Assembly: GCA_966211335.1 (NCBI GenBank)
Contig: CBIHNF010000001.1
Span: forward strand, 730,847-794,846
Origin: an uncultured Alphaproteobacteria bacterium
GTDB lineage: Bacteria > Pseudomonadota > Alphaproteobacteria > Micavibrionales > UBA2020
DNA length: 64,000 nt
Reading direction: 5' to 3'
The notes beneath the pieces are model-generated. The model made no database searches. It was given only the letters and a program-made list of their open reading frames with translations, and was not told where the DNA came from. Made by a program: the position numbers and the translations under genes. This document shows, piece after piece, positions 1-52,179 of this stretch. Positions within the stretch are counted from its first letter, which is position 1. Each line of letters begins with the position of its first letter.

Positions 1-1
1 A

Positions 2-406
2 TATGCGCTCATGTCGGTCGCCGCGCTCTTCTTCGCTATGGTCGTCGCCAGCGCCTCCGGCGCGGCACTCGCAACGCTCGGCCTCTACGTCCTCGCGCGC
101 CTCATCGGCACGGTGCTCGGCATCGCGGCGGAGGCACCGGCAAATTATTTTTACGCCATGCTCAACAACGCGGTCGAGCTGATCTCCGTCTTCGTGCCGC
201 GGCTTGACCTGATGGGGCAGACGTCCTGGCTCGTTTACGGCGTTGCGGGCTCCGGCGGCATCGGCTTCACGCAGGAAGCGGGCACCTATGCGCATATGAT
301 GGTGCATCATTTGGGCCTTCTCGGTTTCATCTCCCTGCAGGGGGTGATTTTTATCATGCTGCTCCTCGCGGCCACAGCCTTCGACTTCCTACGCCGGGAG
401 TTCTGA
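2..406 (+). CDS. integral membrane protein, C-terminal fragment (5' end upstream of window)
   Basis: Frame open from window edge (no stop in 2-10). Track ORF 11-406. Several hydrophobic helices and GC3-rich codons. Stop 404-406 abuts the next start. Confidence 0.5.
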   Translation, partial: YALMSVAALFFAMVVASASGAALATLGLYVLARLIGTVLGIAAEAPANYFYAMLNNAVELISVFVPRLDLMGQTSWLVYGVAGSGGIGFTQEAGTYAHMMVHHLGLLGFISLQGVIFIMLLLAATAFDFLRREF

Positions 407-407
407 C

Positions 408-1211
408 ATGCCGCGCGTCTTCGCCAACGACGGCCAACAGCCCCGCACCGCGGTCAGCCTCTGGCTTGCCTTCGCCGTTAGCATTAACTTCATCATCTGG
501 CTCGGCTCCAGCAGCGTCTTCGCCAAATGGGACGGCGTACCGCCGGCCCCCGCGCGCCGCTCCGCGATCATGATGGGACTTGGCGATTCCGAATTCGCTT
601 ATCGCTACGGTGCGCTCGAGCTGCAAAACCTCGGCGATTCCGGCGGCCAGACGACAGCGCTCAAGGATTACGATTATCAAGAGCTCGGCAAATGGTTCTG
701 GCTGCTCGACAGCCTCGATCCCGCCTCCGACCACGTGCCGATGATGGCGGCATACGTCTTCGGCGCGACGCGTGTGCCGAGCGATGTACGTGTCGTTTAC
801 GACTATCTCGCGAAAATTGGCGACAACCCCGCTGGGCAGAAATGGCGCTGGCTGGTGCATGCCATTTTTCTTGCGCGCCATCGCCTCTATGATCTCGACC
901 TAGCGCTCGGCCTTGCCTACAAACTTTCCAAAATGCAGCTGACCGACGACCATCTGCCAGACTGGGCGCGGCGAATGCCTGCGCTTGTCCTCGCCGAAAA
1001 GGGTGACAAGGAAGACGCGCGCAAGATACTCGAGGATATCCTCGTCAGTTCCGATAAAATTCATCCCAATGAGGTCAATTTCATGAAAGATTACCTCATC
1101 CACCAGCTGGGGGTCGACCCGCGCGAGGTGGAGGCCATCGTCGCGCTGCGCGGCAAGCAGTCCGACGACCATACACTGCCCAAGACCAAGCCAGCGCCGA
1201 TGCCCGAATAA
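408..1211 (+). CDS. hypothetical membrane-anchored protein
   Basis: ATG lies 1 nt after the upstream stop (translational coupling). N-terminal TM helix LWLAFAVSINFIIWLG. No domain recognised. Confidence 0.6.
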   Translation: MPRVFANDGQQPRTAVSLWLAFAVSINFIIWLGSSSVFAKWDGVPPAPARRSAIMMGLGDSEFAYRYGALELQNLGDSGGQTTALKDYDYQELGKWFWLLDSLDPASDHVPMMAAYVFGATRVPSDVRVVYDYLAKIGDNPAGQKWRWLVHAIFLARHRLYDLDLALGLAYKLSKMQLTDDHLPDWARRMPALVLAEKGDKEDARKILEDILVSSDKIHPNEVNFMKDYLIHQLGVDPREVEAIVALRGKQSDDHTLPKTKPAPMPE

Positions 1212-1240
1212 GCCAATTTTTTTGGAGTGGCGGTTTTTAA

Positions 1241-2332
1241 ATGCCTTTTGATTACCAAGCCACCTTTAGTCTCATCGAATGGCTTGCGCTGACGGGCCTT
1301 GCGCAAAGCCTGCTGATCCTTGTGTACATTGTTTTCCGTGTCCGCAACTGGCGACAGGCCTCAATCGCGCTTGCCTACTTCACCTTCCTGGCGCTGGCCT
1401 TCGGGTTGCAATTCGCGCTGCGGCTTGACGACTATGAAACCAATATCCGTCTTGGCCTCGGTTTTTCGCGCGCCATGGGCGCGCCGCTCTGCTATCTGCT
1501 CGTACTACAGGTGTCGCGGCCGCAGACCATGCCGCCTGCGCGTCAGTTCCTGATTTTACTTCTGGTGCCACTCGCTTTCGTTCTTGGCTTCCTCACGGCG
1601 CATTTTGAAAAAGTCTGCGATGACGGTGCGCTGCTCTGCACGCGATCCTTTTCGGTTCTTGGCTGGTTCAGCGCTATGGCGGGCGCCTTCTGCATGCTGG
1701 CGATCTGGTTCCAGAAAAATATCTTCACTATTCTGTGGGAAGAAAAGGGTGGGAGGGAGCGTTACTGGCTCGTCATGACGCTCATCGTCGCCAACGTGCT
1801 GCGCACCGGAGTCAGCCTTCTGACGGCGACGGGCCATGTGGCACGGCCTGATTCGGACGCACTGCAGGTCATGCTCGGCATAGCTTTCGCTTACCTTGTC
1901 ATGACAACTCTATTTCGCATTTACCCCCTGCCTGTGCAGCTGCACACCTCGTCTCGCGCACGGCTGCTACTGCTGTCCGACGAGGAAAAAGAGATCGCTG
2001 AGAAGGTGCGCAAGCTCATGGAGCTCGACAAGGTCTATCACGAGCCTTCTTTCAGCCGCGCGGATCTGGCGCGGGAAGTCGGTACTTCCGAAAATACGCT
2101 TTCCCGCGTCATCAACCAAGCCTTTGGCAAAAGTTTCCCCAAATTGCTGAACGAATTCCGTGTGGAAGATGCAAAACGGATGCTGCATAACCCCGCGATT
2201 GCGATCAATGTGCTGGCCTTTGAAGTGGGTTTCAATTCGCTCGCTTCCTTCAACCGCGTCTTCCGCGAAGTAACGGGGGAGACGCCTTCCCGCTACCGCA
2301 GCCGCCACCAACAGCAGAATACCGGCGCGTAA
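1241..2332 (+). CDS. AraC-family transcriptional regulator with about 7 N-terminal TM helices
   Basis: C-terminal AraC HTH (ADLAREVGTSENTLSRVINQAFGKSF ... FEVGFNSLASFNRVFREVTGETPSRYR). About seven hydrophobic helices in the first 230 aa. GGAG upstream of the ATG. Confidence 0.85.
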   Translation: MPFDYQATFSLIEWLALTGLAQSLLILVYIVFRVRNWRQASIALAYFTFLALAFGLQFALRLDDYETNIRLGLGFSRAMGAPLCYLLVLQVSRPQTMPPARQFLILLLVPLAFVLGFLTAHFEKVCDDGALLCTRSFSVLGWFSAMAGAFCMLAIWFQKNIFTILWEEKGGRERYWLVMTLIVANVLRTGVSLLTATGHVARPDSDALQVMLGIAFAYLVMTTLFRIYPLPVQLHTSSRARLLLLSDEEKEIAEKVRKLMELDKVYHEPSFSRADLAREVGTSENTLSRVINQAFGKSFPKLLNEFRVEDAKRMLHNPAIAINVLAFEVGFNSLASFNRVFREVTGETPSRYRSRHQQQNTGA

Positions 2333-2828
2333 AGGGCAAGCCACTGTATTCAAATGCGGATATTAAATTAGTCTGCGGCGAAAGAATCATGTTTTGATAA
2401 TTCTTATTTCGTGTTTTCCCACGGGCAGAGACTCGCGAAAGGGCCGAGAAATTTTTTCCTGAACTGTCGGTCCGCGCACGGTACAAAAACACGTTTTGAG
2501 AATTTAAAGCGCTCCCACTGTGTCATCTTGACAATGTTAAGAGCGTACGTACTTCTGCTCATTTATCAGCGTTTTCATTCCCATATGCGCATCGTACCTG
2601 CTTATCTTGTCATCCTGAGAAATTAAATGACCGGGTTTAAGGATTCATTTAACTTTTTTGTTGAAAGATAGGATGTAGGTCACCAGACTGAAAATCAGCT
2701 TCGTCGCCATCTATGGGGATGTTCCTAATCTCAAGACGGCAATCGGTTTTCGAACGAGGTGACGGGGCTAAAACCGGCAACGGTTTCGTACTTAACCACT
2801 AGGACTTAACAACTGGGGAGATATCTCT

Positions 2829-3629
2829 ATGAAATGTATTAAAACCCAAAAAGGCTTCACACTCGTCGAATTGGCGATCGTGATGACCATCATCGGTCTT
2901 CTGATCGGTGGTATTCTGAAGGGCCAGGAACTGATGGACAACGCCCGCGTCTCCGCAACGATCGCGCAGACCAAGGGTATTGAAGCCGCCACGACCAGCT
3001 TCCGCGACAGCTATAACTCGATGCCGGGCGATATTCCGAACGCCTCCACGCGCGTTCCGTCCTGCAACGCGTCCTGCAACGTTGTTGCGGCCACGGCTGG
3101 CGACGGCATCATCGGTACGGTTGCCGGTTTCTCCGCCAACTATAACCCGCAGCTAACCACCGCCCTTGGCGGTACCGTGACGGATGAAACCCAGCTGTTC
3201 TGGACCGAACTGCTGCTCGCCAACCTGACGTCGGGCTATACCGATGCGCCGATCCGCGCAACGCCGCCCGCACCGTCGTGGGGCATCACCCAGCCCGCAG
3301 CAAAAATCGGCGGCGGCTATTACGTCGGCTACGCCGTCGGCCTGATCGGCCTTAACTCGCCGATGACGGCAGGTTCCGGCCCGTCCGGCACCGTGCTGGT
3401 GCTGGCGCAGAGCCCGACCGCAGCTATCACTGGTACGGCTGGTAACAACCCGCTCACCCCGGGTCGTGCTGCCCAGATCGACCGCAAGCTCGATGACGGC
3501 AAACCCGGTACCGGCTTCGTCCAGGCTTATGGCGTTGCCACCAAGTGCTGGCAGTCTGCCGCTATCGCAGCCTACGACGAATCCGATACCCAGAAAGATT
3601 GCGGCCTGATCCTGCGTATTCAGGGCTAA
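2829..3629 (+). CDS. type IV pilin (prepilin, copy A)
   Basis: Class III signal MKCIKTQKG|FTLVELAIVMTIIGLLIGGIL with Glu5. C-terminal Cys pair (KCW...KDCG). GGGGAG RBS. Terminator follows. Confidence 0.85.
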   Translation: MKCIKTQKGFTLVELAIVMTIIGLLIGGILKGQELMDNARVSATIAQTKGIEAATTSFRDSYNSMPGDIPNASTRVPSCNASCNVVAATAGDGIIGTVAGFSANYNPQLTTALGGTVTDETQLFWTELLLANLTSGYTDAPIRATPPAPSWGITQPAAKIGGGYYVGYAVGLIGLNSPMTAGSGPSGTVLVLAQSPTAAITGTAGNNPLTPGRAAQIDRKLDDGKPGTGFVQAYGVATKCWQSAAIAAYDESDTQKDCGLILRIQG

Positions 3630-3676
3630 GCTTTCTACCAAGACAAAAGAAGAGCCCGGTGCGAAAGTGCCGGGCT
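2847..3676 (+). repeat. direct repeat unit 1 (830 bp) of tandem pilin duplication
   Basis: Matches 3836-4665 at an offset of 989 bp. The only differences I found are at 3626, 3636, 3665, 3668 and 3669. Confidence 0.9.
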
Positions 3677-3686
3677 CTTCCTTTTA
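3651..3686 (+). terminator. rho-independent terminator after pilin copy A
   Basis: agagcccggtgc-GAAA-gtgccgggctct hairpin (two G-U pairs), then a T-rich tract. Confidence 0.75.
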
Positions 3687-3703
3687 TTAGAGAGACTAAA
3701 ACT

Positions 3704-3719
3704 ATTGCAATTCTGCAAT
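3704..3719. promoter_or_regulatory. inverted repeat ATTGCA-N4-TGCAAT, candidate operator upstream of pilin copy B promoter
   Basis: Perfect 6-bp arms, 8 nt upstream of the predicted -35. Confidence 0.3.
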
Positions 3720-3726
3720 CAAAACC

Positions 3727-3754
3727 TTGTCAACGCGCGTCTTGGTACTATACT
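3727..3754 (+). promoter_or_regulatory. sigma70-like promoter of pilin copy B
   Basis: TTGTCA (3727-3732), 16-nt spacer, TATACT (3749-3754). About 65 nt upstream of ATG 3821. Confidence 0.45.
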
Positions 3755-3820
3755 GGATAAAGGTACTCTTATCCGCAAAAAATCTCGGGGCAGCGGTCAA
3801 CGGTTCAGCAAAGGAAATAT

Positions 3821-4618
3821 ATGCAACGCACATTTCAAAAAGGCTTCACACTCGTCGAATTGGCGATCGTGATGACCATCATCGGTCTTCTGATCGGTGG
3901 TATTCTGAAGGGCCAGGAACTGATGGACAACGCCCGCGTCTCCGCAACGATCGCGCAGACCAAGGGTATTGAAGCCGCCACGACCAGCTTCCGCGACAGC
4001 TATAACTCGATGCCGGGCGATATTCCGAACGCCTCCACGCGCGTTCCGTCCTGCAACGCGTCCTGCAACGTTGTTGCGGCCACGGCTGGCGACGGCATCA
4101 TCGGTACGGTTGCCGGTTTCTCCGCCAACTATAACCCGCAGCTAACCACCGCCCTTGGCGGTACCGTGACGGATGAAACCCAGCTGTTCTGGACCGAACT
4201 GCTGCTCGCCAACCTGACGTCGGGCTATACCGATGCGCCGATCCGCGCAACGCCGCCCGCACCGTCGTGGGGCATCACCCAGCCCGCAGCAAAAATCGGC
4301 GGCGGCTATTACGTCGGCTACGCCGTCGGCCTGATCGGCCTTAACTCGCCGATGACGGCAGGTTCCGGCCCGTCCGGCACCGTGCTGGTGCTGGCGCAGA
4401 GCCCGACCGCAGCTATCACTGGTACGGCTGGTAACAACCCGCTCACCCCGGGTCGTGCTGCCCAGATCGACCGCAAGCTCGATGACGGCAAACCCGGTAC
4501 CGGCTTCGTCCAGGCTTATGGCGTTGCCACCAAGTGCTGGCAGTCTGCCGCTATCGCAGCCTACGACGAATCCGATACCCAGAAAGATTGCGGCCTGATC
4601 CTGCGTATTCAGGGTTAA
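3821..4618 (+). CDS. type IV pilin (prepilin, copy B; mature part identical to copy A)
   Basis: Leader MQRTFQKG|FTLVE... Residues after the cleavage site are identical to copy A. AAGGAA RBS. Terminator follows. Confidence 0.85.
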   Translation: MQRTFQKGFTLVELAIVMTIIGLLIGGILKGQELMDNARVSATIAQTKGIEAATTSFRDSYNSMPGDIPNASTRVPSCNASCNVVAATAGDGIIGTVAGFSANYNPQLTTALGGTVTDETQLFWTELLLANLTSGYTDAPIRATPPAPSWGITQPAAKIGGGYYVGYAVGLIGLNSPMTAGSGPSGTVLVLAQSPTAAITGTAGNNPLTPGRAAQIDRKLDDGKPGTGFVQAYGVATKCWQSAAIAAYDESDTQKDCGLILRIQG

Positions 4619-4665
4619 GCTTTCCACCAAGACAAAAGAAGAGCCCGGTGCGACAGCACCGGGCT
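3836..4665 (+). repeat. direct repeat unit 2 (830 bp) of tandem pilin duplication
   Basis: See unit 1. Identity starts at the codons for QKG|F and ends in the terminator stem. Confidence 0.9.
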
Positions 4666-4671
4666 TTTTTT
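4640..4671. terminator. rho-independent terminator between convergent pilin genes
   Basis: agcccggtgc-GACA-gcaccgggct perfect stem followed by T7. An A-rich tract on the other side makes it usable in both directions. Confidence 0.8.
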
Positions 4672-4690
4672 ATAGACCGAAGAGTGTAAA

Positions 4691-5896
4691 TCAGGGGGAG
4701 CAGATGGCGTTGTTGGAGGCGTCGAAACCTGTAATGAACTTCCCTGTGGGGCAGGTGCGCGGGTTATAGAGCGTCGGGGCGAGGGCGGTGACACACTGCA
4801 GCGTGCCGCCGACAATGCCCTCCACAAGCCCGCCATTACAGTTCATGCCAAGCCCGCCGAAAATCTGCGGGTCAAAGCATTTGGTTCCGGAGGCATCGCA
4901 GACCTTGTCGGCATAGACGTTCTTCGCGCGCACTGTGCCGCGCACATCAAGATCGGCCGTCAGCGTGTTTGTATCCGTGCCAATGCCAACGCGGCCGCCT
5001 GTCTTGGTGTAGATAAGGCCCGTGCCCGCACTTGCCATCTTCCATTTGTCGGAGCTTCCTGAAATTTGGAAGATCATGAAGGGGTCGTCGTAATAAAAGG
5101 GGAGCGAGGCGGCGTCTGTGTTCAGCGAATAAAGGTTCGTATTGGCTGCACTCTGCGACAACAGGAACATAGAATCGCCGTTGCAGTTTTCCACGTCCCG
5201 CCCCGGCGGGGTGCAGGGCGCAACGAGCTTGCCGTTATAGTTGTAAGCGCCCTTGCCATTCTGGCCGGCAGAAAAAATAACGAAGGGAATGGCGTTGACC
5301 TGCAGGTTGCCGATTTTGGAGTTGCCGATCGTCCCATCTGCGGCGTTCTTGGAACTGATGGCGATAGCACCTATAAACTCGTTATAGTGCTTGTTGCCGC
5401 CCGAGGAGTCGGTGGAGCGCGTCATATATTCGGTAACCGTATAGGGGAGCTGGTTGTTCCAGCCGTCGAGAACGTCGGTATAAGCCGCGCCAAGCGTCAC
5501 ATAAGGCAGCGCGCCGGTTAACAAAGGGTCGGGTGTCGGCGCGGGATTGACGACGGGGCGCGCGCCGTTGATGCGGCAGACCTTGCCCGTACCGAAGCAG
5601 CCGAGGGCAGTGGTCGCCGGGCTGCATACCTCTTTGCCGGCGTTAGCGTTATCCGGCGGCAGCGAAGGATCTGCCGGGCAAGGCAGGCGGCCGTTTACGA
5701 ACAGGAACTGCTGCATTTTGTCAGTCGCAACCTGGAAAGCGGAGTCGTTGACGTTTTTAAGGCGCGCAATGCGGTATTGACGATAGCTTTGCAGGCAGGT
5801 GGCAACGGCCAGCGACACAATGCAAAGCAGGATCGCAACCTCTAGAAGCGAGAACCCGGCTTCGGACTTTTTCCTCAGTGCAAGCTTGCGGATCAT
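4691..5896 (-). CDS. large prepilin-type N-terminal domain protein (pilin-like adhesin paralogue 3, 401 aa)
   Basis: Start moved to ATG 5896, which has an AGGAGAG RBS 9 nt upstream. Leader MIRKLALRKKSEAG|FSLLEVAILL. Shares PCPA, SAGQNGKGAY, VGIGT..LDVRG and CPTGK..GF motifs with the two upstream genes. Confidence 0.8.
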   Translation of the reverse strand: MIRKLALRKKSEAGFSLLEVAILLCIVSLAVATCLQSYRQYRIARLKNVNDSAFQVATDKMQQFLFVNGRLPCPADPSLPPDNANAGKEVCSPATTALGCFGTGKVCRINGARPVVNPAPTPDPLLTGALPYVTLGAAYTDVLDGWNNQLPYTVTEYMTRSTDSSGGNKHYNEFIGAIAISSKNAADGTIGNSKIGNLQVNAIPFVIFSAGQNGKGAYNYNGKLVAPCTPPGRDVENCNGDSMFLLSQSAANTNLYSLNTDAASLPFYYDDPFMIFQISGSSDKWKMASAGTGLIYTKTGGRVGIGTDTNTLTADLDVRGTVRAKNVYADKVCDASGTKCFDPQIFGGLGMNCNGGLVEGIVGGTLQCVTALAPTLYNPRTCPTGKFITGFDASNNAICSP

Positions 5897-5944
5897 AATA
5901 ATGGCTCTCCTGAAATCATACACATAGATGAAGAGAAGGCACGG

Positions 5945-7114
5945 TCAAGGTAAAGCGCATTGAATGACGCCCGCACTGTTGAACCCGACGGCGTATTTCC
6001 CTGCCGGGCAGCTCTGCACGCCGGCAGGCGCGGGCAGCGGCACCAGTCCGCAAATGACTTTAGCTTTTTGCAGGCCGATAACGACGTTGCGATAGCCGGG
6101 CGGGGTTAAGGTTTGGGAACAAATGTTGCCGGCCGCAGGATCCGCAATGCTGCTCGGGTTCCAGCAGTTGCCACTGCCTGTATCATCACAGACGCTCGGC
6201 TGGGCGATCTGCGTGCCGGCAAGCGTGCCGGCGACGTCAAGTTTGGCCTGGGGGATGTCCACGCCAACGCCGACGCTGCCGCCGTTCACGTTATGAACAT
6301 CAGGCGTATTCGGATCGGAGGGGTTGGCGATAAAGTCCCACAGCCGCGTCAGCGACCGTTCCGTGTGGCGTACGTAGTCGTCGAAATAGGGCACTTGCGC
6401 GCGGATGCCTTGAATGAAGGTGCCGTTCAAGTTGCAGTTCTTGACCTCACTTGTACCGCCAGCAGCGCAGGGAACAGGGATTTTGCCATCCGCGGAATAG
6501 GCGCCGGCGTGGTTCTGGCCGTAGCCGATAATTACATAGTGGGTACTGGCGGCGGGGTTGGCCAAATCCTGGCCATTTTCCGTCTGGACGCCGATGGAAC
6601 CCCAAGCGTTATCGAAGCTCGCCTTGACCGTCAGCGTCTTGGAGACAGCATAGCCGAACTTGTAGCCGTAGGGATCGAGAGAGTCGCTGACGGTAACGTT
6701 CTTAATCGCGCCGGACGCACTCGCTTGCAGGGTCTTAAAAGGCACCGAACCCATGTAAACGGGGTCCATCGCCCCCACCTGCGGTGCGAGTGTCTTGCGC
6801 GCGCCCGGGAAGGTTGCCAGCGCACAATTCTCAACCCCGGCATTGGCGTCCGTGCTGCGCAGGGTCGGGTCCGCGGGGCAGGGGTAGCGGCCAAAGCCGT
6901 TGTAGAAGTCGGATATAGCTGTATCTATCTTTTCCATCGCCTTCAGCGTATCCGCGCGCTTCCCCGACGCGTTGTAAAGGTCATACAGCTTTACACCCGC
7001 GACAAGCATCAGGCTTGAAATAACCATCACCATGGCGACTTCAACCAGGGAAAAGCCGCCCCTGCTGCGGATACCTTTATGCACTCTCGTTCCCATCAGC
7101 TCTCTCCGGATCAT
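5945..7114 (-). CDS. large prepilin-type N-terminal domain protein (pilin-like adhesin paralogue 2, 389 aa)
   Basis: Start set at ATG 7114, in an ATGA overlap with the upstream stop (7111-7113). Leader MIRRELMGTRVHKGIRSRGG|FSLVEVAMV. The track's longer ORF (to 7282) would overlap the upstream gene. Confidence 0.75.
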   Translation of the reverse strand: MIRRELMGTRVHKGIRSRGGFSLVEVAMVMVISSLMLVAGVKLYDLYNASGKRADTLKAMEKIDTAISDFYNGFGRYPCPADPTLRSTDANAGVENCALATFPGARKTLAPQVGAMDPVYMGSVPFKTLQASASGAIKNVTVSDSLDPYGYKFGYAVSKTLTVKASFDNAWGSIGVQTENGQDLANPAASTHYVIIGYGQNHAGAYSADGKIPVPCAAGGTSEVKNCNLNGTFIQGIRAQVPYFDDYVRHTERSLTRLWDFIANPSDPNTPDVHNVNGGSVGVGVDIPQAKLDVAGTLAGTQIAQPSVCDDTGSGNCWNPSSIADPAAGNICSQTLTPPGYRNVVIGLQKAKVICGLVPLPAPAGVQSCPAGKYAVGFNSAGVIQCALP

Positions 7115-9588
7115 TCGCACGAGCAGGTACCGTACTGGTAGCCGCCACCGCCGGGAAGGGCGGCCGAACAGTTGGCCGTGTCGCTGTAGGTCGAGCAGGT
7201 GGTATTGGCTTGGATGGTGCGCGGCAGGGAACCACTGCCGCTGATGCTCTTCATCTTCCAGAAGTACAGGGTGATGAAGCATTCATTGTCATACGTTGTC
7301 CAGGCACCCCAAGTGCCGCTGCCGCAGTCATAGTCGCGGCGCTGGTTGTCCGCGCCCGTCATGCCGCTCGGGCACGTGGCGGCACGCGTTTCCGTTGCAC
7401 CCGCGCAGGTGCAATGGTCACCGCCGGGAATGGTCGCCCAAGCAGACCAGGAACCGCCGCTCCCGCCGCAGGTCCAGACCCGTTGCTGGCTCAGATAGCC
7501 TGAAAAAGCGGTGGGGCAGGAGGTGGTGCGGGTCTGCGGCGCCTGCGCGGCGCAGGTGCAGGTATTGGAAGGATATGTCGGCGTACCGAAGTATCCTGAT
7601 TTCAAATCCGCGTTGCAAAGCCAAGGCGTGACTTTGGTAATAGAGCCCGAGGTATAGGCCGAGCCGCAGGACAGGTATTCCGTTTTCGTATCCGGCACGC
7701 AGGTGCAAAGGTTGATGTCGTTGGTATAGCTATCGGTATCCGCGGGGCATGTATGCGTATGATGCCGCGTATGCGTGCCTGTAAAGCCGAAGGAAGGGCA
7801 ACCCAAGTTTTCATCCGTATCGATGGCGCTGCAGCTGCAAATGCCGCTTTCCCCGATTTTGCCCCACTGCCCATCGCTCTGGCACTGCCAGGTCTGGCCG
7901 TAGCTGATGCCCGAAACCGGGGTTGTGCCCACAATGGCACCCGGCAGCGCGCTAGGCAGCGTGAAGGTGTCGGGCACGCAAAGTGCGACCGTTCGCGTCG
8001 CGCATTTCAGCACGCTGGAGCAATGAATGGTGCCGTCAGCATTGATCGCGTCCATGATAGAGCCACTCGGGCAGGCGACGTTGACGGCGCTTGCCGTCGT
8101 GCAGTCGATGGCGTCATGCGAGAAGCCGACCGCAAAAGGCGGTTTCAGACCGCCGCAATTGTACTTGGGAGAGGCCGGCGACGCGCCCTTGGCGATTTCC
8201 GCGTTTGTGATGCAGGCGGTGCCGTCGTTCCGACAGACGTAATCGCCGACGGTGGTCGAAGTGTCGGTTTTGATGGTGCCGCGGGCATCCAGCGTCTGGG
8301 TGGGGCTCGACGTCTTGACGCCGATCTTGCCGGTGGATTCAGCATCCACCAGGTCGCGGATGTCATGGCCCGCGGGATCCGCGATGCGCCACAGCGGCGT
8401 ATCGGACGAGGCGTAGAATTTGATGACATCGTCATAGTGCGTGGCTTCGTTGGTCGCCTTGGTCGTCGAGCTGTAATTGGTGATTTTGAAAATTGCCTTG
8501 TTGCCGCCAGCGCAGTTGACGCCGTCCTTGGCGACGGCCGAGCACGGAACGCCGATTTTGCCGAAGTGCGTATAAGCGCCGGCACCGTCTTCGCCGCTGC
8601 TCATGATCACGAAGTGAACCTGACCGGAGCCGTTGTCCAGCTTGCGATAATCACCAGAGCCCGCCGTCGTTTCAACGTCGTCGATAACCGAAATGCCACC
8701 GCCGTTGCGGGTATAATCCGCGGCCGTGCGGGCCAGGGGCTCCGTCACCGCGTAGCGGATGCGGTTGTTATAGCCGTCATCCGCATAGCTTTCATCCATG
8801 CCAAGCGTGCGGAACGGCACGCCACCGACTCGCACACGCTGGAATGTGCCTGCGACCGGGCCCGTAGGCGGGCCGTAAAGCGCCGAGACGCGCATTCTCT
8901 TGAAGGTGCCGGAACACGGGTCGCCAAAGTTGGCGTTGGTCGCCGCGAAAGTGGCTGAGTTCAGCCCTAATACAATCCCCTCCACCACGGTTTTACTCGA
9001 CGTCGAATTGCACGCCCCAACGTTATAAGAGCCGCATATGCCGCTTGGCGTGCCGTAGGAAGCGAAAGTGATGCTCTGAATGACGTTACCCGGCGGTGCT
9101 GTCAGCGTAATATTGGTGTTTTCATCGCCTTCCCCGCAAAGAAGGTTCGAGCCCCCTACTGCCGTCTGGCTTTCCTGAATGTAGACACCGCTGCCAGTAT
9201 GAACGCCGGCTGCATTATAACTGGGCTGGAAGGTGCCGACCGCCTGGCCCGTAGCAGTACAGTCACCGGAAACCCCGAACTCCGGCTTATCGGGCGGAAC
9301 ATCGATGGGGGCGGGGCAGGGGTAATGGCCGTTACGCACGAGGTAATCGTTCAAGGCCTGAACCACCTGGCCGGTATTGGTGGTAGTGGTTATCTGTCTC
9401 TGGGTGCGGCTATAAATATTGTACGCCGAAATCAGCGATGCCATCACCAAGCTGAGGACGACGAGAACAATCGCGGTTTCAATCAGCGTATATCCTGCTT
9501 GGTGCCATTTACCCGTATTCAAGCGCGCAGGCGAAGTTGAATGCTGCTTAGACGAGCGACCAAAAAGGACCACGGGAATTCTCCACAC
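7111..9588 (-). CDS. giant prepilin-type protein with lectin-like domain and Cys-rich C-terminal modules (825 aa)
   Basis: ...KWHQAG|YTLIETAIVLVVLSL class III signal. The track start is GTG 9588. An in-frame TTG at 9522 would give a typical 10-aa leader (MNTGKWHQAG). GC3-rich codons throughout. Confidence 0.75.
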   Translation of the reverse strand: MWRIPVVLFGRSSKQHSTSPARLNTGKWHQAGYTLIETAIVLVVLSLVMASLISAYNIYSRTQRQITTTTNTGQVVQALNDYLVRNGHYPCPAPIDVPPDKPEFGVSGDCTATGQAVGTFQPSYNAAGVHTGSGVYIQESQTAVGGSNLLCGEGDENTNITLTAPPGNVIQSITFASYGTPSGICGSYNVGACNSTSSKTVVEGIVLGLNSATFAATNANFGDPCSGTFKRMRVSALYGPPTGPVAGTFQRVRVGGVPFRTLGMDESYADDGYNNRIRYAVTEPLARTAADYTRNGGGISVIDDVETTAGSGDYRKLDNGSGQVHFVIMSSGEDGAGAYTHFGKIGVPCSAVAKDGVNCAGGNKAIFKITNYSSTTKATNEATHYDDVIKFYASSDTPLWRIADPAGHDIRDLVDAESTGKIGVKTSSPTQTLDARGTIKTDTSTTVGDYVCRNDGTACITNAEIAKGASPASPKYNCGGLKPPFAVGFSHDAIDCTTASAVNVACPSGSIMDAINADGTIHCSSVLKCATRTVALCVPDTFTLPSALPGAIVGTTPVSGISYGQTWQCQSDGQWGKIGESGICSCSAIDTDENLGCPSFGFTGTHTRHHTHTCPADTDSYTNDINLCTCVPDTKTEYLSCGSAYTSGSITKVTPWLCNADLKSGYFGTPTYPSNTCTCAAQAPQTRTTSCPTAFSGYLSQQRVWTCGGSGGSWSAWATIPGGDHCTCAGATETRAATCPSGMTGADNQRRDYDCGSGTWGAWTTYDNECFITLYFWKMKSISGSGSLPRTIQANTTCSTYSDTANCSAALPGGGGYQYGTCSCE
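8872..9150 (-). other. SUEL/rhamnose-binding-lectin-like domain inside the 825-aa pilin-like protein (aa 147-239)
   Basis: The motifs FASYGTPSGIC ... FGDPCSGTFKRMRVSALY follow Gal_Lectin hallmark spacing. Confidence 0.6.
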
Positions 9589-9745: not shown

Positions 9746-10888
9746 TCAGGCGTTCAAAAACCAACCCGAGAGAATCCGGAAATATATTTCCTTAAGCTTT
9801 GTCATGTCATCGACGGCAACGCGCTCATCCGTTTTATGCATGGTCTGGCCGACGATGCCGAATTCGACGACAGGGCAGTGGTTGCGGATAAAGCGCGCGT
9901 CGGAGGTGCCGCCGGTGGTGCTGAGTTCGGCCTCCCGGCCCGTGACGTCCTTGATGGCCTTTTGCACCATCTCCGAGAGTTTGCCGGGCGGGGTGTAGAA
10001 GCTTTCGCCGCCGGTGCGGGTCGTCAGGGAATAGGGAATTTTTTGCGCGTCCAGCGTCTCGCGCAGCTTCTTCTCAAGGCTCGCGCCCGTATAGCTGTCG
10101 TTGAAGCGCACGTTGAACACGGCCTTTGCCGCCCGAGGAATGATATTTTCGGCGGTGTTGCCGATGTCGATATTTACAACTTCAAGATTGGACGGCTGGA
10201 AATGGGCGGTGCCCTTGTCCAGCTCCAGCCCGTCAATCGCCTGCAGCAGCGTCATCAGCTTCGGGATCGGGTTATCGGCGAGATGCGGATAGGCCACATG
10301 GCCCTGTACGCCTTCAACGCTTAAATACCCGGTAAAGGTGCCCCTGCGACCGATTTTCATCATGTCACCCAGCTGCTCGCGCGATGTCGGTTCGCCGACG
10401 ATACAGAAATCGATTTTTTCCCCGCGCGCGGCCAGCCAGTCCAGCACCTTTTTCGTGCCATTGACGGAGGGGCCTTCTTCATCGCCTGTGATGAGGAAGC
10501 TGATGGAGCCTTTGGGGTTCTGCGCCTTGATGTAATCAATCGCGGCGGCGGCGAAGCAGGCGATGGGGCCTTTCATATCGGCCGCGCCGCGCCCGCAGAC
10601 AAAGCCGTCCTTGATCTCGCCGCCGAAAGGGTCGAAGCTCCAGCTGGCTTCCGCGCCGACCGGCACCACATCCGTATGGCCCGCAAAGCAGATATGCGGC
10701 GCGGCTTTCCCCCAGCGGGCATAAAGGTTTTCAACGTCCGGCGTATCGACGTCGGAGAAGGTGAGGCGGTGGCATTCAAAGCCGTTTTCTTCCAGCAGCT
10801 TTTGCAGCAGCGTGATCGCGCCGCCCTCGGCCGGCGTCACGCTGGGGCAGCGCAGGAGATCCTGCAGGAGTTTTACAGGATCGGTCAT
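9746..10888 (-). CDS. dapE: succinyl-diaminopimelate desuccinylase
   Basis: 380 aa, M20 peptidase. LLRCPSVTPAEGGA and ICFAGHTDVVP motifs. Adjacent to dapD. Confidence 0.9.
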   Translation of the reverse strand: MTDPVKLLQDLLRCPSVTPAEGGAITLLQKLLEENGFECHRLTFSDVDTPDVENLYARWGKAAPHICFAGHTDVVPVGAEASWSFDPFGGEIKDGFVCGRGAADMKGPIACFAAAAIDYIKAQNPKGSISFLITGDEEGPSVNGTKKVLDWLAARGEKIDFCIVGEPTSREQLGDMMKIGRRGTFTGYLSVEGVQGHVAYPHLADNPIPKLMTLLQAIDGLELDKGTAHFQPSNLEVVNIDIGNTAENIIPRAAKAVFNVRFNDSYTGASLEKKLRETLDAQKIPYSLTTRTGGESFYTPPGKLSEMVQKAIKDVTGREAELSTTGGTSDARFIRNHCPVVEFGIVGQTMHKTDERVAVDDMTKLKEIYFRILSGWFLNA

Positions 10889-10893
10889 GCGGA

Positions 10894-11739
10894 TTAATCC
10901 CTGAGCAATTCGTTGATGCCGGTTTTGGAGCGCGTCTGCGCATCGACGCGTTTCACGATGACGGCGCAGTAAAGCCCCGGGCCGGGGGTGCCGTCCGGCA
11001 ACGGTTTGCCGGGCGTGGTGCCGGCGACGACGACGGAATAGGCGGGCACGCGGCCCGTGAAAACCTCGCCTGTCGCGCGGTCGATGATTTTGGTGGAAGC
11101 GCCAAGGTAGACGCCCATGGACAGCACCGCGCCTTCTTCAATGATAACGCCTTCGGCTACTTCCGAGCGCGCACCGATAAAGCAGTTGTCTTCAATAATG
11201 ACGGGGTTCGCCTGCAGGGGTTCCAAAACGCCCCCAATGCCGACGCCGCCCGAGATATGGCAGTTCTTGCCAACTTGTGCGCAGGAGCCGATGGTGACCC
11301 AGGTGTCGACCATGGTGCCTTCGCCGACATAAGCGCCGACGTTGACGAAGGATGGCATCAGCACCGCTTTCGGGGCAATAAACGCAGAGGGGCGCACGAC
11401 AGCGCCCGGCACCGCGCGGTAGCCGCCGGCCTTGAAGGCAGCTTCATCCATGCCCTCGAACTTCGAGCCCATTTTGTCGTACCAGGTGGAGCCTGCAACG
11501 CCGCCCTTCACAGGCGCGTTATCGTTGAAGCGGAAAGAAAGGAGAATGGCTTTCTTCAGCCACTGGTGCGTGACCCAAGCACCGTCAATTTTTTCCGAGA
11601 CGCGCAGCGTGCCGGCGCCCAAGAGCGCCATGATATCCTCGACCGTCTTCTTGCCGATCAGCTTCATCTTGTCGGTCAGCTGTTCGCGGCCGTCCCAGAC
11701 GTTGTTGATGGCGTTTTCAAGATCGGCGTAGTCGGACAT
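10894..11739 (-). CDS. dapD: 2,3,4,5-tetrahydropyridine-2,6-dicarboxylate N-succinyltransferase
   Basis: 281 aa. Hexapeptide-repeat C-terminal half. Typical DapD length and dapE synteny. Confidence 0.9.
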
Positions 11740-11753
11740 GATATGGCGGCCTT

Positions 11754-12422
11754 TCAGGCAGGTTTTTGGATATTGGCGAGGAACCAGTCGGGCAGTTTTT
11801 CCGCCTTCTGGTGGACGTGCGGGTGGTTGAGGTCTTCCGGCGCGACGTTCTTGCCGTGGAACCAGACCGTCGACATGCCGAGCTCATGCGCAGGGCGCAG
11901 ATTGATTTCAAGGTCCTCGAACATGCAGGCCTTTGCCGGTTCCACGTTGTGGCGCTTCAAAAACGTGTGATAGGTGTCGATCTTCGGTTTCGGCCAGTAA
12001 GCGGCGTCTTCAATCGCGAAGATATCTTCGAAATGGTGGCGGATGCCAAGGTGCTGCGTCATTGCTTCCGCAAAGGCCTTTGGCGCATTGGTGAAAACGA
12101 AGCGGCGGCCGGGCAGGTGGGCGAGCGATTCTTGCGTCACCTTGCAGGGCGGCACGACGGAGATGTCGATGTCGTGCACATGCTCGAGAAAATGATAGGG
12201 GTCGATGCCGTGTTCGGTCATGAGGCCGCGCAGCGTCGTGCCATAGGTTTTGTAGTAGTGCTTGCGCAGGCGCCCTGCTTCTTCGCGCTCCACCTTCAGG
12301 TGGTTTTGCACGAAATCGGTCATGCGGTTGCCGACTTCGACGAAGACATGGCTCTCCGCGTCATAGAGCGTGTTGTCGAGGTCAAAGACCCAAGCGTTGG
12401 TGCGGGAAAGAAGGCCGGTCAT
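11754..12422 (-). CDS. HAD-superfamily hydrolase (pyrimidine 5'-nucleotidase-like)
   Basis: Motif I is [10 protein letters not shown]. Start set at ATG 12422, because the track extension would overlap recR (ends 12433). Confidence 0.75.
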
Positions 12423-12432
12423 GATGGTGAGC

Positions 12433-13026
12433 TTAGACAGCCTTTCTGGATTTGAGCGCGGTCGCAAGGGTGCCTTCGTCAAGGTAATCGATCTGGCCGC
12501 CGATGGGCACGCCATGCGCCAGCTGCGTGACTTTCACGCCCGTGGCGGCAAGGCAGTCGGCGATGTAATGCGCCGTCGTCTGCCCGTCGATGGTGGCGTT
12601 AAGGGCGAGGATGACTTCGCGCGCGCCCCGCGTCTTCACGCGTTCGACAAGATGGGGGATGGACAGGTCTTCAGGGCCGATACCATCCAGCGCCGAAAGC
12701 GTGCCGCCAAGGACGTGGTAATAACCCTTAAAGCCGCCCGTCTTCTCAACCGCCCAGAGGTCCGAGACGTCTTCGACGACGCAGAAGACAGCGGTATCGC
12801 GCGCAGCGCTAGAGCAGATGGCGCAAGGCTTTTGCGTATCAAGGCTGTGGCATTCGGGGCATTCTTCAATCACTTCGGCCGCGCGGGCAAGCGCCTGCGC
12901 CAGCGGCAGCATCAGGCTCTCCCGGCTTTTCAGCAGGTGCAGCGCGGCTCTGCGGCCGGAGCGCGGGCCCATGCCCGGCAGGCGGGCGATGAGCTTCATC
13001 AGATGTTCGATTTCGGTCCCGATCAT
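12433..13026 (-). CDS. recR: recombination protein RecR
   Basis: 197 aa. [21 protein letters not shown] HhH motif, [16 protein letters not shown] zinc finger, Toprim region. Confidence 0.92.
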
Positions 13027-13089
13027 GGGCTTGAGTATAGGCCGCCAAAACGCCTTTTTCCAGAGAATTAGGGGAAAAGAGAAGGCGCG

Positions 13090-13806
13090 TTAGCCGCCGA
13101 AAGCATCACTGAAAATAAAGTCTTTTTCCGCGCCTTGCGCCAGCAGCAGCGGCAGGGTCGCCTCCACCATGGCGGCGGGGCCAGCCATGTAGATATTGAA
13201 CCCAGTCAGGTCGGGCATATCCGCCGTGACTGCCGCACCGATATACCCGCTGCGCCGCCCGGCGGCTTCGCCATGGGCGATCACGGGAATATAACGGAAG
13301 GCGGGCTTGCCAGCGGCAAGGTCATTGAAGAAAGCATCAAGGTAGAGATGCGCCTCATCGCGCACGCCCCAGTAAAGCGTGACACGCACATCGCCGGTTT
13401 TATGCGCCAGCTGCGCCTCGATCACGGCTTTCAGCGGCGCAATGCCGACGCCGCCGGCCAGCGCCAGCAGCGGACGTGTGGACGGACGCCAGTAATGGTC
13501 GCCAAAAGGCGCTTCAAGCGTGACAGCATCGCCTTTTTTCAAGCTGGTAAAGACGGCATTGGAAAAACCGCGGTGGCTGTTCTTGATGTGGAATTCCAAA
13601 ACGGGCTGGTGCGGCGCGGAAGCGATAGAAAACGCGCGCGGCTCCAGACCCTCAAGGCTCAAGTGTGCATATTGCCCGGCCAGAAAATCGAGCGCCGCGC
13701 CGCCCGGCAGCGCAAGCCGCAGGATGCGCGTATCGGCGGCGATATCCTCGATCGATGCGACGTGGGCGATATGCGTTGAGGCGGCGGGCAAGCGGGCATC
13801 CTGCAA
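13090..13806 (-). CDS. FNR-like FAD/NAD(P)H oxidoreductase
   Basis: RAFSIAS (RxYS-type FAD site) and LALAGGVGIAPL (NAD(P)-binding) motifs. 238 aa. Confidence 0.75.
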   Translation of the reverse strand: MQDARLPAASTHIAHVASIEDIAADTRILRLALPGGAALDFLAGQYAHLSLEGLEPRAFSIASAPHQPVLEFHIKNSHRGFSNAVFTSLKKGDAVTLEAPFGDHYWRPSTRPLLALAGGVGIAPLKAVIEAQLAHKTGDVRVTLYWGVRDEAHLYLDAFFNDLAAGKPAFRYIPVIAHGEAAGRRSGYIGAAVTADMPDLTGFNIYMAGPAAMVEATLPLLLAQGAEKDFIFSDAFGG

Positions 13807-13890
13807 GGGTGAAAAAGGGGCTGAAAAATGCTTCGGGCCTGTCTCCCTGAAATGGGGGACGGGCCCGAAAAAGTCAAGAATTAAAGAGAT

Positions 13891-15330
13891 TTAGGCCGGA
13901 GCTACCGCATTTTTGGCGGGTTTCGCTTCCTTCGGCACAATGGCGGCCGGCGTTTCTTTCGCAGCAGCGATTGTCACCGCTGGCAGCTTCAAACCGTCAT
14001 TCGCCTTGTCGGCGGTGCGCAGGAAGCCTTCGATCTCGGCGTATTTTTTCGGCTCTGACGGGGTTGTGTCGTCTTTGCCAAGGGAGGAGCGGATCATGCC
14101 GGCCGAGGTTTCATCGACGGCAATCGCGCCGCTCTTGATACCATCACGCAGGGCGGTGATGCCTTTTTGCAGTTCGGGGTCGCCTTTGGCAGCCTCGATC
14201 TTCTTGTCGAGGAAGCCTTCGAGACCTTCAAGCGCTTTCGGCGCTTCGGTCTTGGCGGTTTCAGCAGGCGGCGCGTCGGCAGTGGTTTCCTGCTTTGGCG
14301 CGTCCTGTTTCGGCGCTTCCGTCTCGGGTTTCTTGTCGGTCGCGGCGAATTTGCTGTTCGACAGGTCAATCGGGCCCTGCTCGGCGGCAGAGGCGCCAAC
14401 GACCAGCTGGTCAGCGGTCGCCGAACTCTTCTGCGCTTCAAACTGGGCGAGTTTTTCGTAAACGGCGCTACCTTCGGGCGGCGCAAAGTTTGCAACGCCA
14501 AGGCCCTGCTTTTTCGCTTCCAGCCACATCATTTCTTTTTGCGCATCGTTACCGTAGACGTTGACCGCTTTCCAGCCGCGCTGGCGGGCTGCCGCCATGA
14601 CGCCATGGGCGTCGACTTCGTCAAAATTCTTGGAGCGGTTCGGCATGCCGATGAATTCAGCGCCGCCGAGGTTGGCGTGCCATTCAATCGCGTGGTTGTT
14701 CTGCAGTTCGAAAACGAGGCCGCCTTTGTGCGGATAAACCTTGCCTTCCGGCCCCAGCGCACGCGCCAGTTCCGCGTCCAGCTGGAAGTCGGGATCCGGC
14801 CAGACTTCACGCATTTTTGCGAGGGAGTCGGGGTGCACAGCGAGGTTGGTCGCAAAGCGCGACTGCTGCAGCTGCTCGTTGTCGATCGGCGTATCGGCGG
14901 TCGGCGCGGTTTGCTGTTGCGGCTGCGCAGGCTTGTTTGCATTCGCTTCCGCTTCTTTTTTCTTGCGGATTTCCTCTTCCGTTTCGGCAACGGGGGCGGC
15001 GGGCGCATCGCCGTCTTTCTTTTCTGCTTTTTCTTCAGCCGGCGGCGCGGTGTTCAGCGGCGCATCGGCCTTTTTCTCTTCCACCGGCGCCGTCGCATTC
15101 GCGGCGGGCGGCGTCACGGGGTCGGCTTTCTTTTCTTCCGCGGTCGCGGTGGCGGTCGAGCCTTCGGCCGAGGGTGCGGTCGCCTTCAGGTCGACCGCAG
15201 GGGTGACTTCGTCGGCATTGCGGACGCCCTGAACCGGGTCTTCCTTCGCTGAGGTGAATTTCGTGTCGGGAGGGGTCACCGGTGCGTCATTTTTGGCGGT
15301 GTCGGCGGGTTGCTTCACATCATCAGCCAT
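13891..15330 (-). CDS. hypothetical protein, Ala/Pro/Glu/Lys-rich disordered arms around a folded core
   Basis: Longest of many overlapping ORFs. GC3-rich codons. GGGATGAGG upstream of the ATG. EEKKAD-type low-complexity repeats. Confidence 0.6.
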   Translation of the reverse strand: MADDVKQPADTAKNDAPVTPPDTKFTSAKEDPVQGVRNADEVTPAVDLKATAPSAEGSTATATAEEKKADPVTPPAANATAPVEEKKADAPLNTAPPAEEKAEKKDGDAPAAPVAETEEEIRKKKEAEANANKPAQPQQQTAPTADTPIDNEQLQQSRFATNLAVHPDSLAKMREVWPDPDFQLDAELARALGPEGKVYPHKGGLVFELQNNHAIEWHANLGGAEFIGMPNRSKNFDEVDAHGVMAAARQRGWKAVNVYGNDAQKEMMWLEAKKQGLGVANFAPPEGSAVYEKLAQFEAQKSSATADQLVVGASAAEQGPIDLSNSKFAATDKKPETEAPKQDAPKQETTADAPPAETAKTEAPKALEGLEGFLDKKIEAAKGDPELQKGITALRDGIKSGAIAVDETSAGMIRSSLGKDDTTPSEPKKYAEIEGFLRTADKANDGLKLPAVTIAAAKETPAAIVPKEAKPAKNAVAPA

Positions 15331-52008: not shown

Positions 52009-52179
52009 GTTCTAAACACTCCCTCGTAGAATTCTTTTGCTACTTCCATTGTAACGTACAATGTCATTAAACAGCAAAAAAGTTAATTTTGCATTTACAT
52101 ATGGATTGCAAAAAACGTGAATTATCAGACTCGTAAGATTGTTACGAGAGGGGCCTGAAAAAACCCAAAAACAGGGGGA

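Follow-up and report, generated by a model that had tools for sequence, protein, structure and literature searches.

How do two adjacent genes come to encode the same mature protein behind leaders, ribosome-binding sites and upstream regions that are unrelated? The question is raised by a 64,000-nucleotide stretch of DNA from an uncultured alphaproteobacterium (hereafter the window, 64 kb in full), in which two type IV pilin genes, copy A and copy B, lie in tandem and specify identical 257-aa mature proteins (positions of all features are given in Table 1). The two genes are here interpreted as tandem major type IV pilin paralogues under concerted evolution by gene conversion, a reading to which a probability of about 0.8 is assigned. 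The initial annotation of this DNA had suggested a recent duplication or ongoing gene conversion. Of the two, gene conversion is supported by mismatches that are confined to the edges of the repeat, by co-variation of the copies among strains and by comparable pairs in three other species, whereas the unique spacer between the copies argues against recent duplication.

Comparison of the copies at every base, with an offset of 989 nucleotides (nt), revealed a direct repeat of 830 nt that contains only five mismatches, at the same sites as those listed in the initial annotation. One mismatch is synonymous and falls in the last Gly codon (3626, C in copy A and T in copy B), another is located immediately 3' of the stop codon (3636, T/C) and the other three are found in the terminator (3665, A/C; 3668, T/C; 3669, G/A). 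The repeat starts with the CAA codon at 2847, which specifies Gln(-3) of the QKG↓F prepilin cleavage motif, and it ends at 3676, the final base of the terminator stem; the DNA that flanks the repeat units on either side is unrelated between the copies, and the spacer is unique, without similarity to the repeat flanks. That identity begins at the QKG↓F codons and leaves the mature proteins identical, that the leaders and upstream DNA are unrelated, and that the G-U pairs and GAAA loop of the copy A terminator are replaced by perfect pairs and a GACA loop in copy B had also been claimed, and these points were borne out by the alignment and the open reading frames, by sequence comparison and by folding, respectively. 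Each of the two terminators has a folding energy of -28.3 kcal/mol, and the copy B terminator scores on the minus strand too, where it would serve the convergent gene. Searches of the 64-kb window with blastn (word size 7) and tblastn gave no further pilin copy, full or partial.

The mismatches are concentrated at one end of the repeat. None is present in its first 779 nt and five are present in its last 51 nt (P ~9e-7 under uniformity); the same test gave ~1e-5 for the pair in L009, and for the pair in L019 the observed run was reached in 0 of 200,000 simulations (both are genomes of related species described below). Further evidence came from three contigs of the window species (L004, L005 and L006), which are independent metaSPAdes assemblies of three other samples and are 99.2-99.7% identical to the window in nucleotide sequence. 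The five 3'-end mismatches are copy-specific in these samples as well, for copy A in L004, L005 and L006 and for copy B in L004 and L005, and because they are conserved in other samples they predate the split of the strains.

The interior of the repeat varies by strain, not by copy. A table of strain-variable sites drawn from the window, L001, L002 and L004-L007 contains a patch whose core, at 3419-3443 in copy A and 4408-4432 in copy B, carries 11 substitutions in nine consecutive codons (25 nt), mostly at third positions. One state of this patch is present in both copies of the window, and the other is present in copy A of L006 and in copy B of L004 and L005. Since the patch co-varies in both copies, a change that arose in, or was imported into, one copy appears to have spread to the other. 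As a separate observation, the patch core looks as if a short segment of a divergent allele had been imported; neither the fetched loci nor the rest of the window yielded a donor.

Relatives were surveyed by scanning one genome per species, followed by a hidden Markov model search of the loci. Three more species were found to carry near-identical tandem pairs at the syntenic locus, where a hypothetical gene, an AraC-type gene and the pilin follow one another (L008, L009 and L019; Table 1). Fourfold-degenerate sites are 97.7-99.4% identical between the copies of each of the four genomes and 47-59% identical between species, and because these sites match between copies A and B, purifying selection on the protein cannot explain their identity. 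In all four species copies A and B have different leaders, and 0-2 residues separate their mature proteins. In L008, L009 and L019 the start codon, or a position close to it, marks the beginning of identity and the leaders are one or a few residues apart, so the edge at the cleavage motif that the initial annotation had described holds for the window species and is not a general trait. In the window, L009 and L019, no difference between the copies is farther than about 50 nt from an edge of the repeat. In L009, moreover, the copies match in the coding sequence only and have terminators of different sequence, a pattern that a simple segmental duplication cannot yield.

Under gene conversion, repeated non-reciprocal homologous recombination between the copies, probably of the RecA type, would homogenise the mature-coding region. 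Conversion tracts would stop where homology stops, which would account for the abrupt loss of identity at the leader codons and the terminator; the outermost 50 nt would keep old copy-specific differences, and the promoter, ribosome-binding site, leader and downstream DNA would remain unrelated. One pilin would then be produced from two transcription units, copy A behind a conserved operator/promoter region beside the AraC-type gene and copy B behind a sigma-70-like promoter. The duplication itself may be older than the species splits, and a single ancient duplication would be the most economical reading of the sequences.

More broadly, the pilin array expands, contracts and diverges by lineage. 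The comparison of copy number at the orthologous locus, proposed as a check with the initial annotation, revealed 1, 2, 3 or 6 copies in relatives, the near-identical pairs in three species included (Table 1). Copies 1 and 2 of the three-copy array in L091 differ by 45 nt but by only 7 aa.

Several observations weigh against concerted evolution of one ancestral pair or against parts of its evidence. Local alignment scores among the spacers of the four species were no better than those of shuffled controls, so the spacers give no date for the duplication, and independent events, although less economical, may have occurred; the unconstrained part of the copy A upstream DNA is equally unalignable between species. 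The ATG-CAA start of copy B and a TTGT..-N16-TATA.. geometry are common to the window and L008 only. An apparent single copy was found in L018, which is 82% identical to L009, and in L020, which is 65% identical to L019; loss, assembly collapse or independent gain could account for these single copies in close relatives. The syntenic locus of M. aeruginosavorus ARL-13 also lists a single pilin gene, compared with two in the window (PMC3189940). Within the window species, three short-read contigs (L001, L002 and L007, aligned to window 1252-7268) have a single-copy form, in which the copy A upstream DNA and leader run into one coding region followed by the copy B 3' end and downstream DNA. As proof of a one-copy strain these contigs are uninformative, as assembler collapse and recombinational deletion predict the same structure. 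The co-variation of the interior patch pools copies A and B from different short-read samples of one study. Finally, bubble-popping in De Bruijn graphs or short-read polishing can wipe out sparse differences in the interior of a repeat, and such a consensus keeps differences within about one k-mer of the edges and mimics an edge-only pattern. For this reason the identity of the repeat interiors, perfect in the window, L009 and L019, may be somewhat overstated; interior differences between copies do survive assembly in L008 and L091.

Among the alternatives, a very recent tandem duplication without gene conversion, after which there was too little time for divergence, fares best and is nevertheless improbable. 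It would be in keeping with the extension of near-identity to synonymous sites and with the frequent changes of copy number at the locus, and the unalignable spacers would fit independent events in each species. A fresh tandem duplication is disfavoured because it would leave no unique spacer that supplies copy B with a promoter, a ribosome-binding site and a leader; nor are the copies related in their leaders and upstream DNA. The clustered 3'-end mismatches are old enough to be common to strains, the interior patch follows the strain and not the copy, and the L009 pair combines identity of the coding sequence with unrelated terminators. Four independent events with the same gene-limited boundaries would also be required.

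An assembly or polishing artefact, whether through mis-joined strain variants or through a consensus over two somewhat different copies, is less probable still. The single-copy contigs, the ability of assemblers and polishers to homogenise repeat interiors and the position of the differences within about 50 nt of the edges are what it would predict. The tandem arrangement is genuine, however, because three independent contigs span the junctions between the copy A 3' end, the spacer and copy B. L004 is collinear with window 3512-5703, L005 with 3571-5211 and L006 with 1-3890; together they cover the upstream DNA, copy A, the spacer and the start of copy B as well as the copy A 3' end, the spacer, copy B and the downstream DNA, and their spacers are 100% identical to that of the window. 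The concern that the pair might be an artefact, which had accompanied its first description, is answered by these junctions. Look-ups of the exact sequences of the two pilins returned no contig, but the cluster listing places both on one contig of 2,203,028 bp. In addition, the joining of the copy A-specific terminator variant to the spacer would be impossible from a single-copy genome. A homogenising consensus is opposed by the interior differences that persist in L008 and L091. Collapse, moreover, needs at least about 97% identity, so the contrast with the 47-59% between species holds.

Least credible of all is variation of the kind known from Neisseria pilE/pilS, where silent, truncated and divergent cassettes diversify one expressed gene by non-reciprocal recombination: conversion between pilin copies underlies that variation and the short, highly divergent patch at 3419-3443 would suit an expressed gene with a silent donor, but the window pair is homogenised and consists of two complete genes that both look expressible, each of full length with a start codon, ribosome-binding site, leader, cleavage site and terminator, identical copies hold no reservoir of diversity, partial copies are missing from the rest of the 64-kb window, and the mostly synonymous differences between the L091 copies imply purifying selection on each copy.

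Table 1. Features of the window and pilin arrays at the corresponding loci of relatives
Sequence	Feature	Position	Strand	Description
Window	AraC-family regulator gene	1241..2332	+	Pfam HTH_18 2.4e-22, HTH_AraC 1.2e-12; just upstream of copy A
Window	Conserved non-coding region upstream of copy A	2508..2692	+	~185 nt; gap-free alignment in at least 10 species
Window	Palindrome CTTGACAaTGTTAAG	2527..2541	+	Inside block M1; includes TTGACA at 2528; nearly invariant in 10 species
Window	Candidate copy A promoter TTGAAA-N17-CAGACT	2661..2689	+	Weak; read from alignment
Window	Pilin gene copy A	2829..3629	+	266 aa; leader MKCIKTQKG; 257-aa mature part
Window	Repeat unit 1	2847..3676	+	830 nt; Gln(-3) codon to end of terminator stem
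Window	Strain-variable patch	3419..3461 (copy B: 4408-4450)	+	12 sites, 2 amino-acid changes
Window	Copy A intrinsic terminator	3649..3680	+	14-bp stem, two G-U pairs, GAAA loop, short U tract
Window	Spacer	3677..3835	+	159 nt; holds copy B promoter-like site, ribosome-binding site and leader codons
Window	Inverted repeat ATTGCA-N4-TGCAAT	3704..3719	+	8 nt upstream of copy B -35 hexamer
Window	Copy B sigma-70-like promoter (predicted) TTGTCA-N16-TATACT	3727..3754	+	10/12 consensus matches
Window	Pilin gene copy B	3821..4618	+	265 aa; leader MQRTFQKG; mature part same as copy A
Window	Repeat unit 2	3836..4665	+	830 nt
Window	Copy B terminator	4636..4671	.	Perfect stem, GACA loop, T7 tract
Window	Three convergent large prepilin-type genes	4691..9588	-	~401, ~383 and ~800-825 aa; N-termini G↓F/Y-[TS]-L-[ILV]-E; N_methyl
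Window	Large prepilin-type gene 1	4691-5923	-	
Window	Large prepilin-type gene 2	about 5945-7096	-	
Window	Prepilin-type protein with SUEL lectin domain	7111-9588	-	825 aa; galactose/rhamnose-binding; Pfam 3.1e-11
L008 (Micavibrio sp. Chal_Metagen_Bin5)	Pilin pair			A vs B 98.6% over 877 nt
L009 (MAG006 D1-2020)	Pilin pair			A vs B 97.8% over 897 nt
L019 (uncultured Micavibrio sp.)	Pilin pair			A vs B 96.7% over 905 nt
L091 (GCA_041287865.1)	Pilin array	2927-5840		Three copies 91-95% identical; differences evenly spread, mostly synonymous
L092 (metagenome-assembled genome)	Pilin array	5001-6901		Two copies ~55% identical
L086 (M. aeruginosavorus metagenome-assembled genome)	Pilin array			Two copies 67% identical (nucleotide)
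L034 (Micavibrio sp. UBA6929)	Pilin array	10001-14988		Six divergent tandem pilin genes

The regions in front of the two copies suggest that one structural subunit may be under two kinds of control. In the initial annotation copy A was said to have no comparable promoter within about 250 bp, the nearest TTGACA being at 2528. This picture has to be corrected, as that TTGACA is part of a block which is conserved in at least 10 species and belongs to a conserved region of ~185 nt. Across 10 aligned species this region contains long invariant blocks, among them, besides the palindrome CTTGACAaTGTTAAG, a TGTACG..CGTAC palindrome, a TTAAC-T6-GTTGAA block at 2649-2666 and GGTCACCA, and the distance from M1 to M2 (the first to the third conserved block) is exactly 120 nt in every species. 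CTTGACAaTGTTAAG has one exact match in the 64-kb window, and on the reverse strand it matches itself with 3 mismatches. The sole other near-match of the TTAACTTTTTTGTTGAA motif of the copy A upstream region was found in the window at 52070-52086 on the minus strand, with 3 mismatches.

The DNA upstream of copy A was also considered as a riboswitch or small RNA, a reading that was rejected because RNAalifold returned -6.6 kcal/mol for the 10 species and detected no covariation; an Rfam scan of 2200-4800 (E up to 1) returned sub-threshold chance matches on the terminators only. Because there is no covarying RNA structure, the conserved blocks are read as protein-binding DNA sites. The region probably comprises operators and a promoter for copy A, and the blocks are plausibly the predicted binding sites of the adjacent AraC-type regulator. 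The hexamers of the candidate promoter sit in invariant or nearly invariant alignment columns; the consensus scan missed it, its -10 hexamer matching at 3 of 6 positions.

None of the conserved motifs upstream of copy A is present in the spacer before copy B. The TTGTCA-N16-TATACT promoter and the ATTGCA-N4-TGCAAT inverted repeat that had been reported there are both present in the sequence, the promoter also being returned by the consensus scan. It is the sole sigma-70-like match in 2200-4800; shuffled sequences average 1.1 such matches, so it is not significant by itself, and it is credible because of its position only. None of the L008, L009 and L019 spacers showed the inverted repeat, and the L008 spacer has a TTGTGT-N16-TATATA of its own. 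Since the strong hairpin terminator of copy A is followed by a promoter-like site before copy B, two separately controlled transcription units are likely. Two regulatory inputs driving one subunit are plausible on the same sequence grounds, and we infer that copies A and B may be differently regulated. Whether this arrangement is itself selected is more doubtful. It is possible, if tentative, that in Micavibrio-like obligate predators selection keeps two (sometimes three) separately wired genes for one pilin, copy A being switched by the AraC-type regulator through the conserved upstream operators, for example on prey contact, and copy B providing basal expression from a simple promoter, with conversion keeping the filament uniform and recombination between the repeats yielding a one-/two-copy dosage polymorphism within populations. 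Alternatively, the pair could serve as gene dosage for a very highly expressed protein.

The predicted products have the features of major pilins. The cleavage motif reads MKCIKTQKG↓FTLVELAIVMTIIGLL in copy A and MQRTFQKG↓FTLVEL... in copy B, and the proteins have the characters of a class III signal peptide, that is, a short basic leader, Gly(-1), Phe(+1), Glu(+5) and a hydrophobic N-terminal helix. Matches above the cut-off were obtained with Pfam N_methyl (31.2 bits vs 21.2; E 1.4e-07) and TIGR02532 (26.8 bits vs 16.3). An AlphaFold2 model built with 118 homologues (predicted local distance difference test score, 92.5) has an N-terminal helix of ~50 residues (residues 12-62) and a beta-sheet head of four or five strands; Cys79, Cys83 and Cys258 are invariant and Cys240 is nearly so (at least 90% of the 118 sequences). 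Comparison of the model with the PDB by Foldseek returned solely type IV pilins, namely the type IVb pilin of enterotoxigenic Escherichia coli, C. difficile PilA1, CofA and TcpA, as weak matches (query-normalised TM-score at most 0.32, best E 2.4e-3). No close solved relative of the head domain was found by Foldseek, and a sequence search of solved structures matched the N-terminal helix of known pilins only. A GspG pseudopilin was rejected, as TIGR01710 scored 24.2 bits against a cut-off of 88.85 with only the N-terminal 60 residues aligned, and the mature protein has 257 aa where ~140 aa would be expected. There are more than 4,000 homologues, those with names being from Micavibrio or from unclassified alphaproteobacterial metagenome-assembled genomes; among metagenome contigs of the JGI (Joint Genome Institute), a search for nearer relatives gave distant matches only (at most 43% identical). 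The presence of PilT-like ATPases in the gene cluster points to a retractile pilus, and both genes are best read, from sequence features, as major pilin genes of a predatory Micavibrio-like alphaproteobacterium that would build a retractile type IV pilus.

The locus is a clean example of a known process, the concerted evolution of duplicated filament-subunit genes, and not a new kind of system, in a group of predatory bacteria that has been little studied; a paper-library search on concerted evolution in tandem pilin genes gave no description of this locus. In enterobacteria, tufA and tufB are duplicates for a very abundant protein in which RecA-dependent conversion keeps the genes nearly identical and the flanks differ. 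Unlike the tandem genes of the window, however, they are far apart in separate operons and encode a cytoplasmic translation factor.

The closest analogues are flaA/flaB of Campylobacter and pilA1/pilA2 of Sulfolobus. The flaA and flaB genes of Campylobacter jejuni are adjacent and ~95% identical, they have sigma-28 (flaA) and sigma-54 (flaB) promoters, and recombination between the copies has been discussed (PMC5126078). They thus share with the window pair the neighbouring position of near-identical filament-subunit genes with separate promoters, which are predicted ones in the window, but they are non-identical flagellins with major and minor roles, whereas the window genes are pilins with identical mature proteins. 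All Sulfolobales genomes examined were reported to carry a type IV pilin gene in duplicate; in S. islandicus pilA1 and pilA2 are identical in 7 of 12 genomes and either alone complements the mutant, and the term gene conversion is absent from the text of that paper (PMC7217056). A duplicated type IV pilin gene, often with identical copies, is common to both cases. The archaeal genes differ in that their products are processed by PibD and in that they are not always in tandem or on the same strand; apart from the class III signal peptide, their protein family bears no relation to that of the window pilins.

The attachment of predatory bacteria to prey is generally attributed to type IV pili, and a subunit that is encoded twice behind different control regions would offer a genetic handle on pilin supply over the predatory cycle. 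In M. aeruginosavorus the syntenic pilin is among the most strongly expressed genes in attachment; GMV_1530 of strain ARL-13 is a highly expressed pilin that is up-regulated on attachment to prey, with an expression index of 34.5 in the attack phase and 196.5 in the attachment phase, and the AraC counterpart next to it is almost silent (PMC3189940). The locus with its relatives of 1, 2, 3 or 6 copies also represents a natural case for gauging conversion tract lengths and edge effects in bacteria. As short-read metagenome assemblies easily collapse such genes, pilin copy number is probably underestimated in surveys of metagenome-assembled genomes.

About 50 related loci keep the gene order of hypothetical gene, AraC-type gene and pilin. 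In the AraC-family regulator a C-terminal helix-turn-helix domain follows an N-terminal half that is long and hydrophobic, and because of the hydrophobic half the protein is suggested to be anchored in the membrane. The pilus machinery lies outside the window, just upstream, where the same-species contig L006 has the order Peptidase_A24 (prepilin peptidase), T2SSE, T2SSE (PilT-size ATPases), Secretin, two hypothetical genes, AraC and pilin. The same order was found in Micavibrio sp. GCA_028283745.1 (L003) and in M. aeruginosavorus ARL-13, where it extends from GMV_1537 to GMV_1530 with GMV_1531/1530 as the AraC/pilin genes (PMC3189940, Additional file 4); GMV_1530 therefore shares with the window pair the neighbourhood of an AraC-type gene, two hypothetical genes, a secretin gene, two genes for PilT-like ATPases and a prepilin peptidase gene. 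The three large prepilin-type genes that lie downstream of copy B and converge on it have homologues in related loci. They probably encode minor or tip pilins that join the copy A/B subunit in one filament, and the SUEL-lectin protein and the neighbouring large prepilins may serve as tip adhesins for prey recognition.

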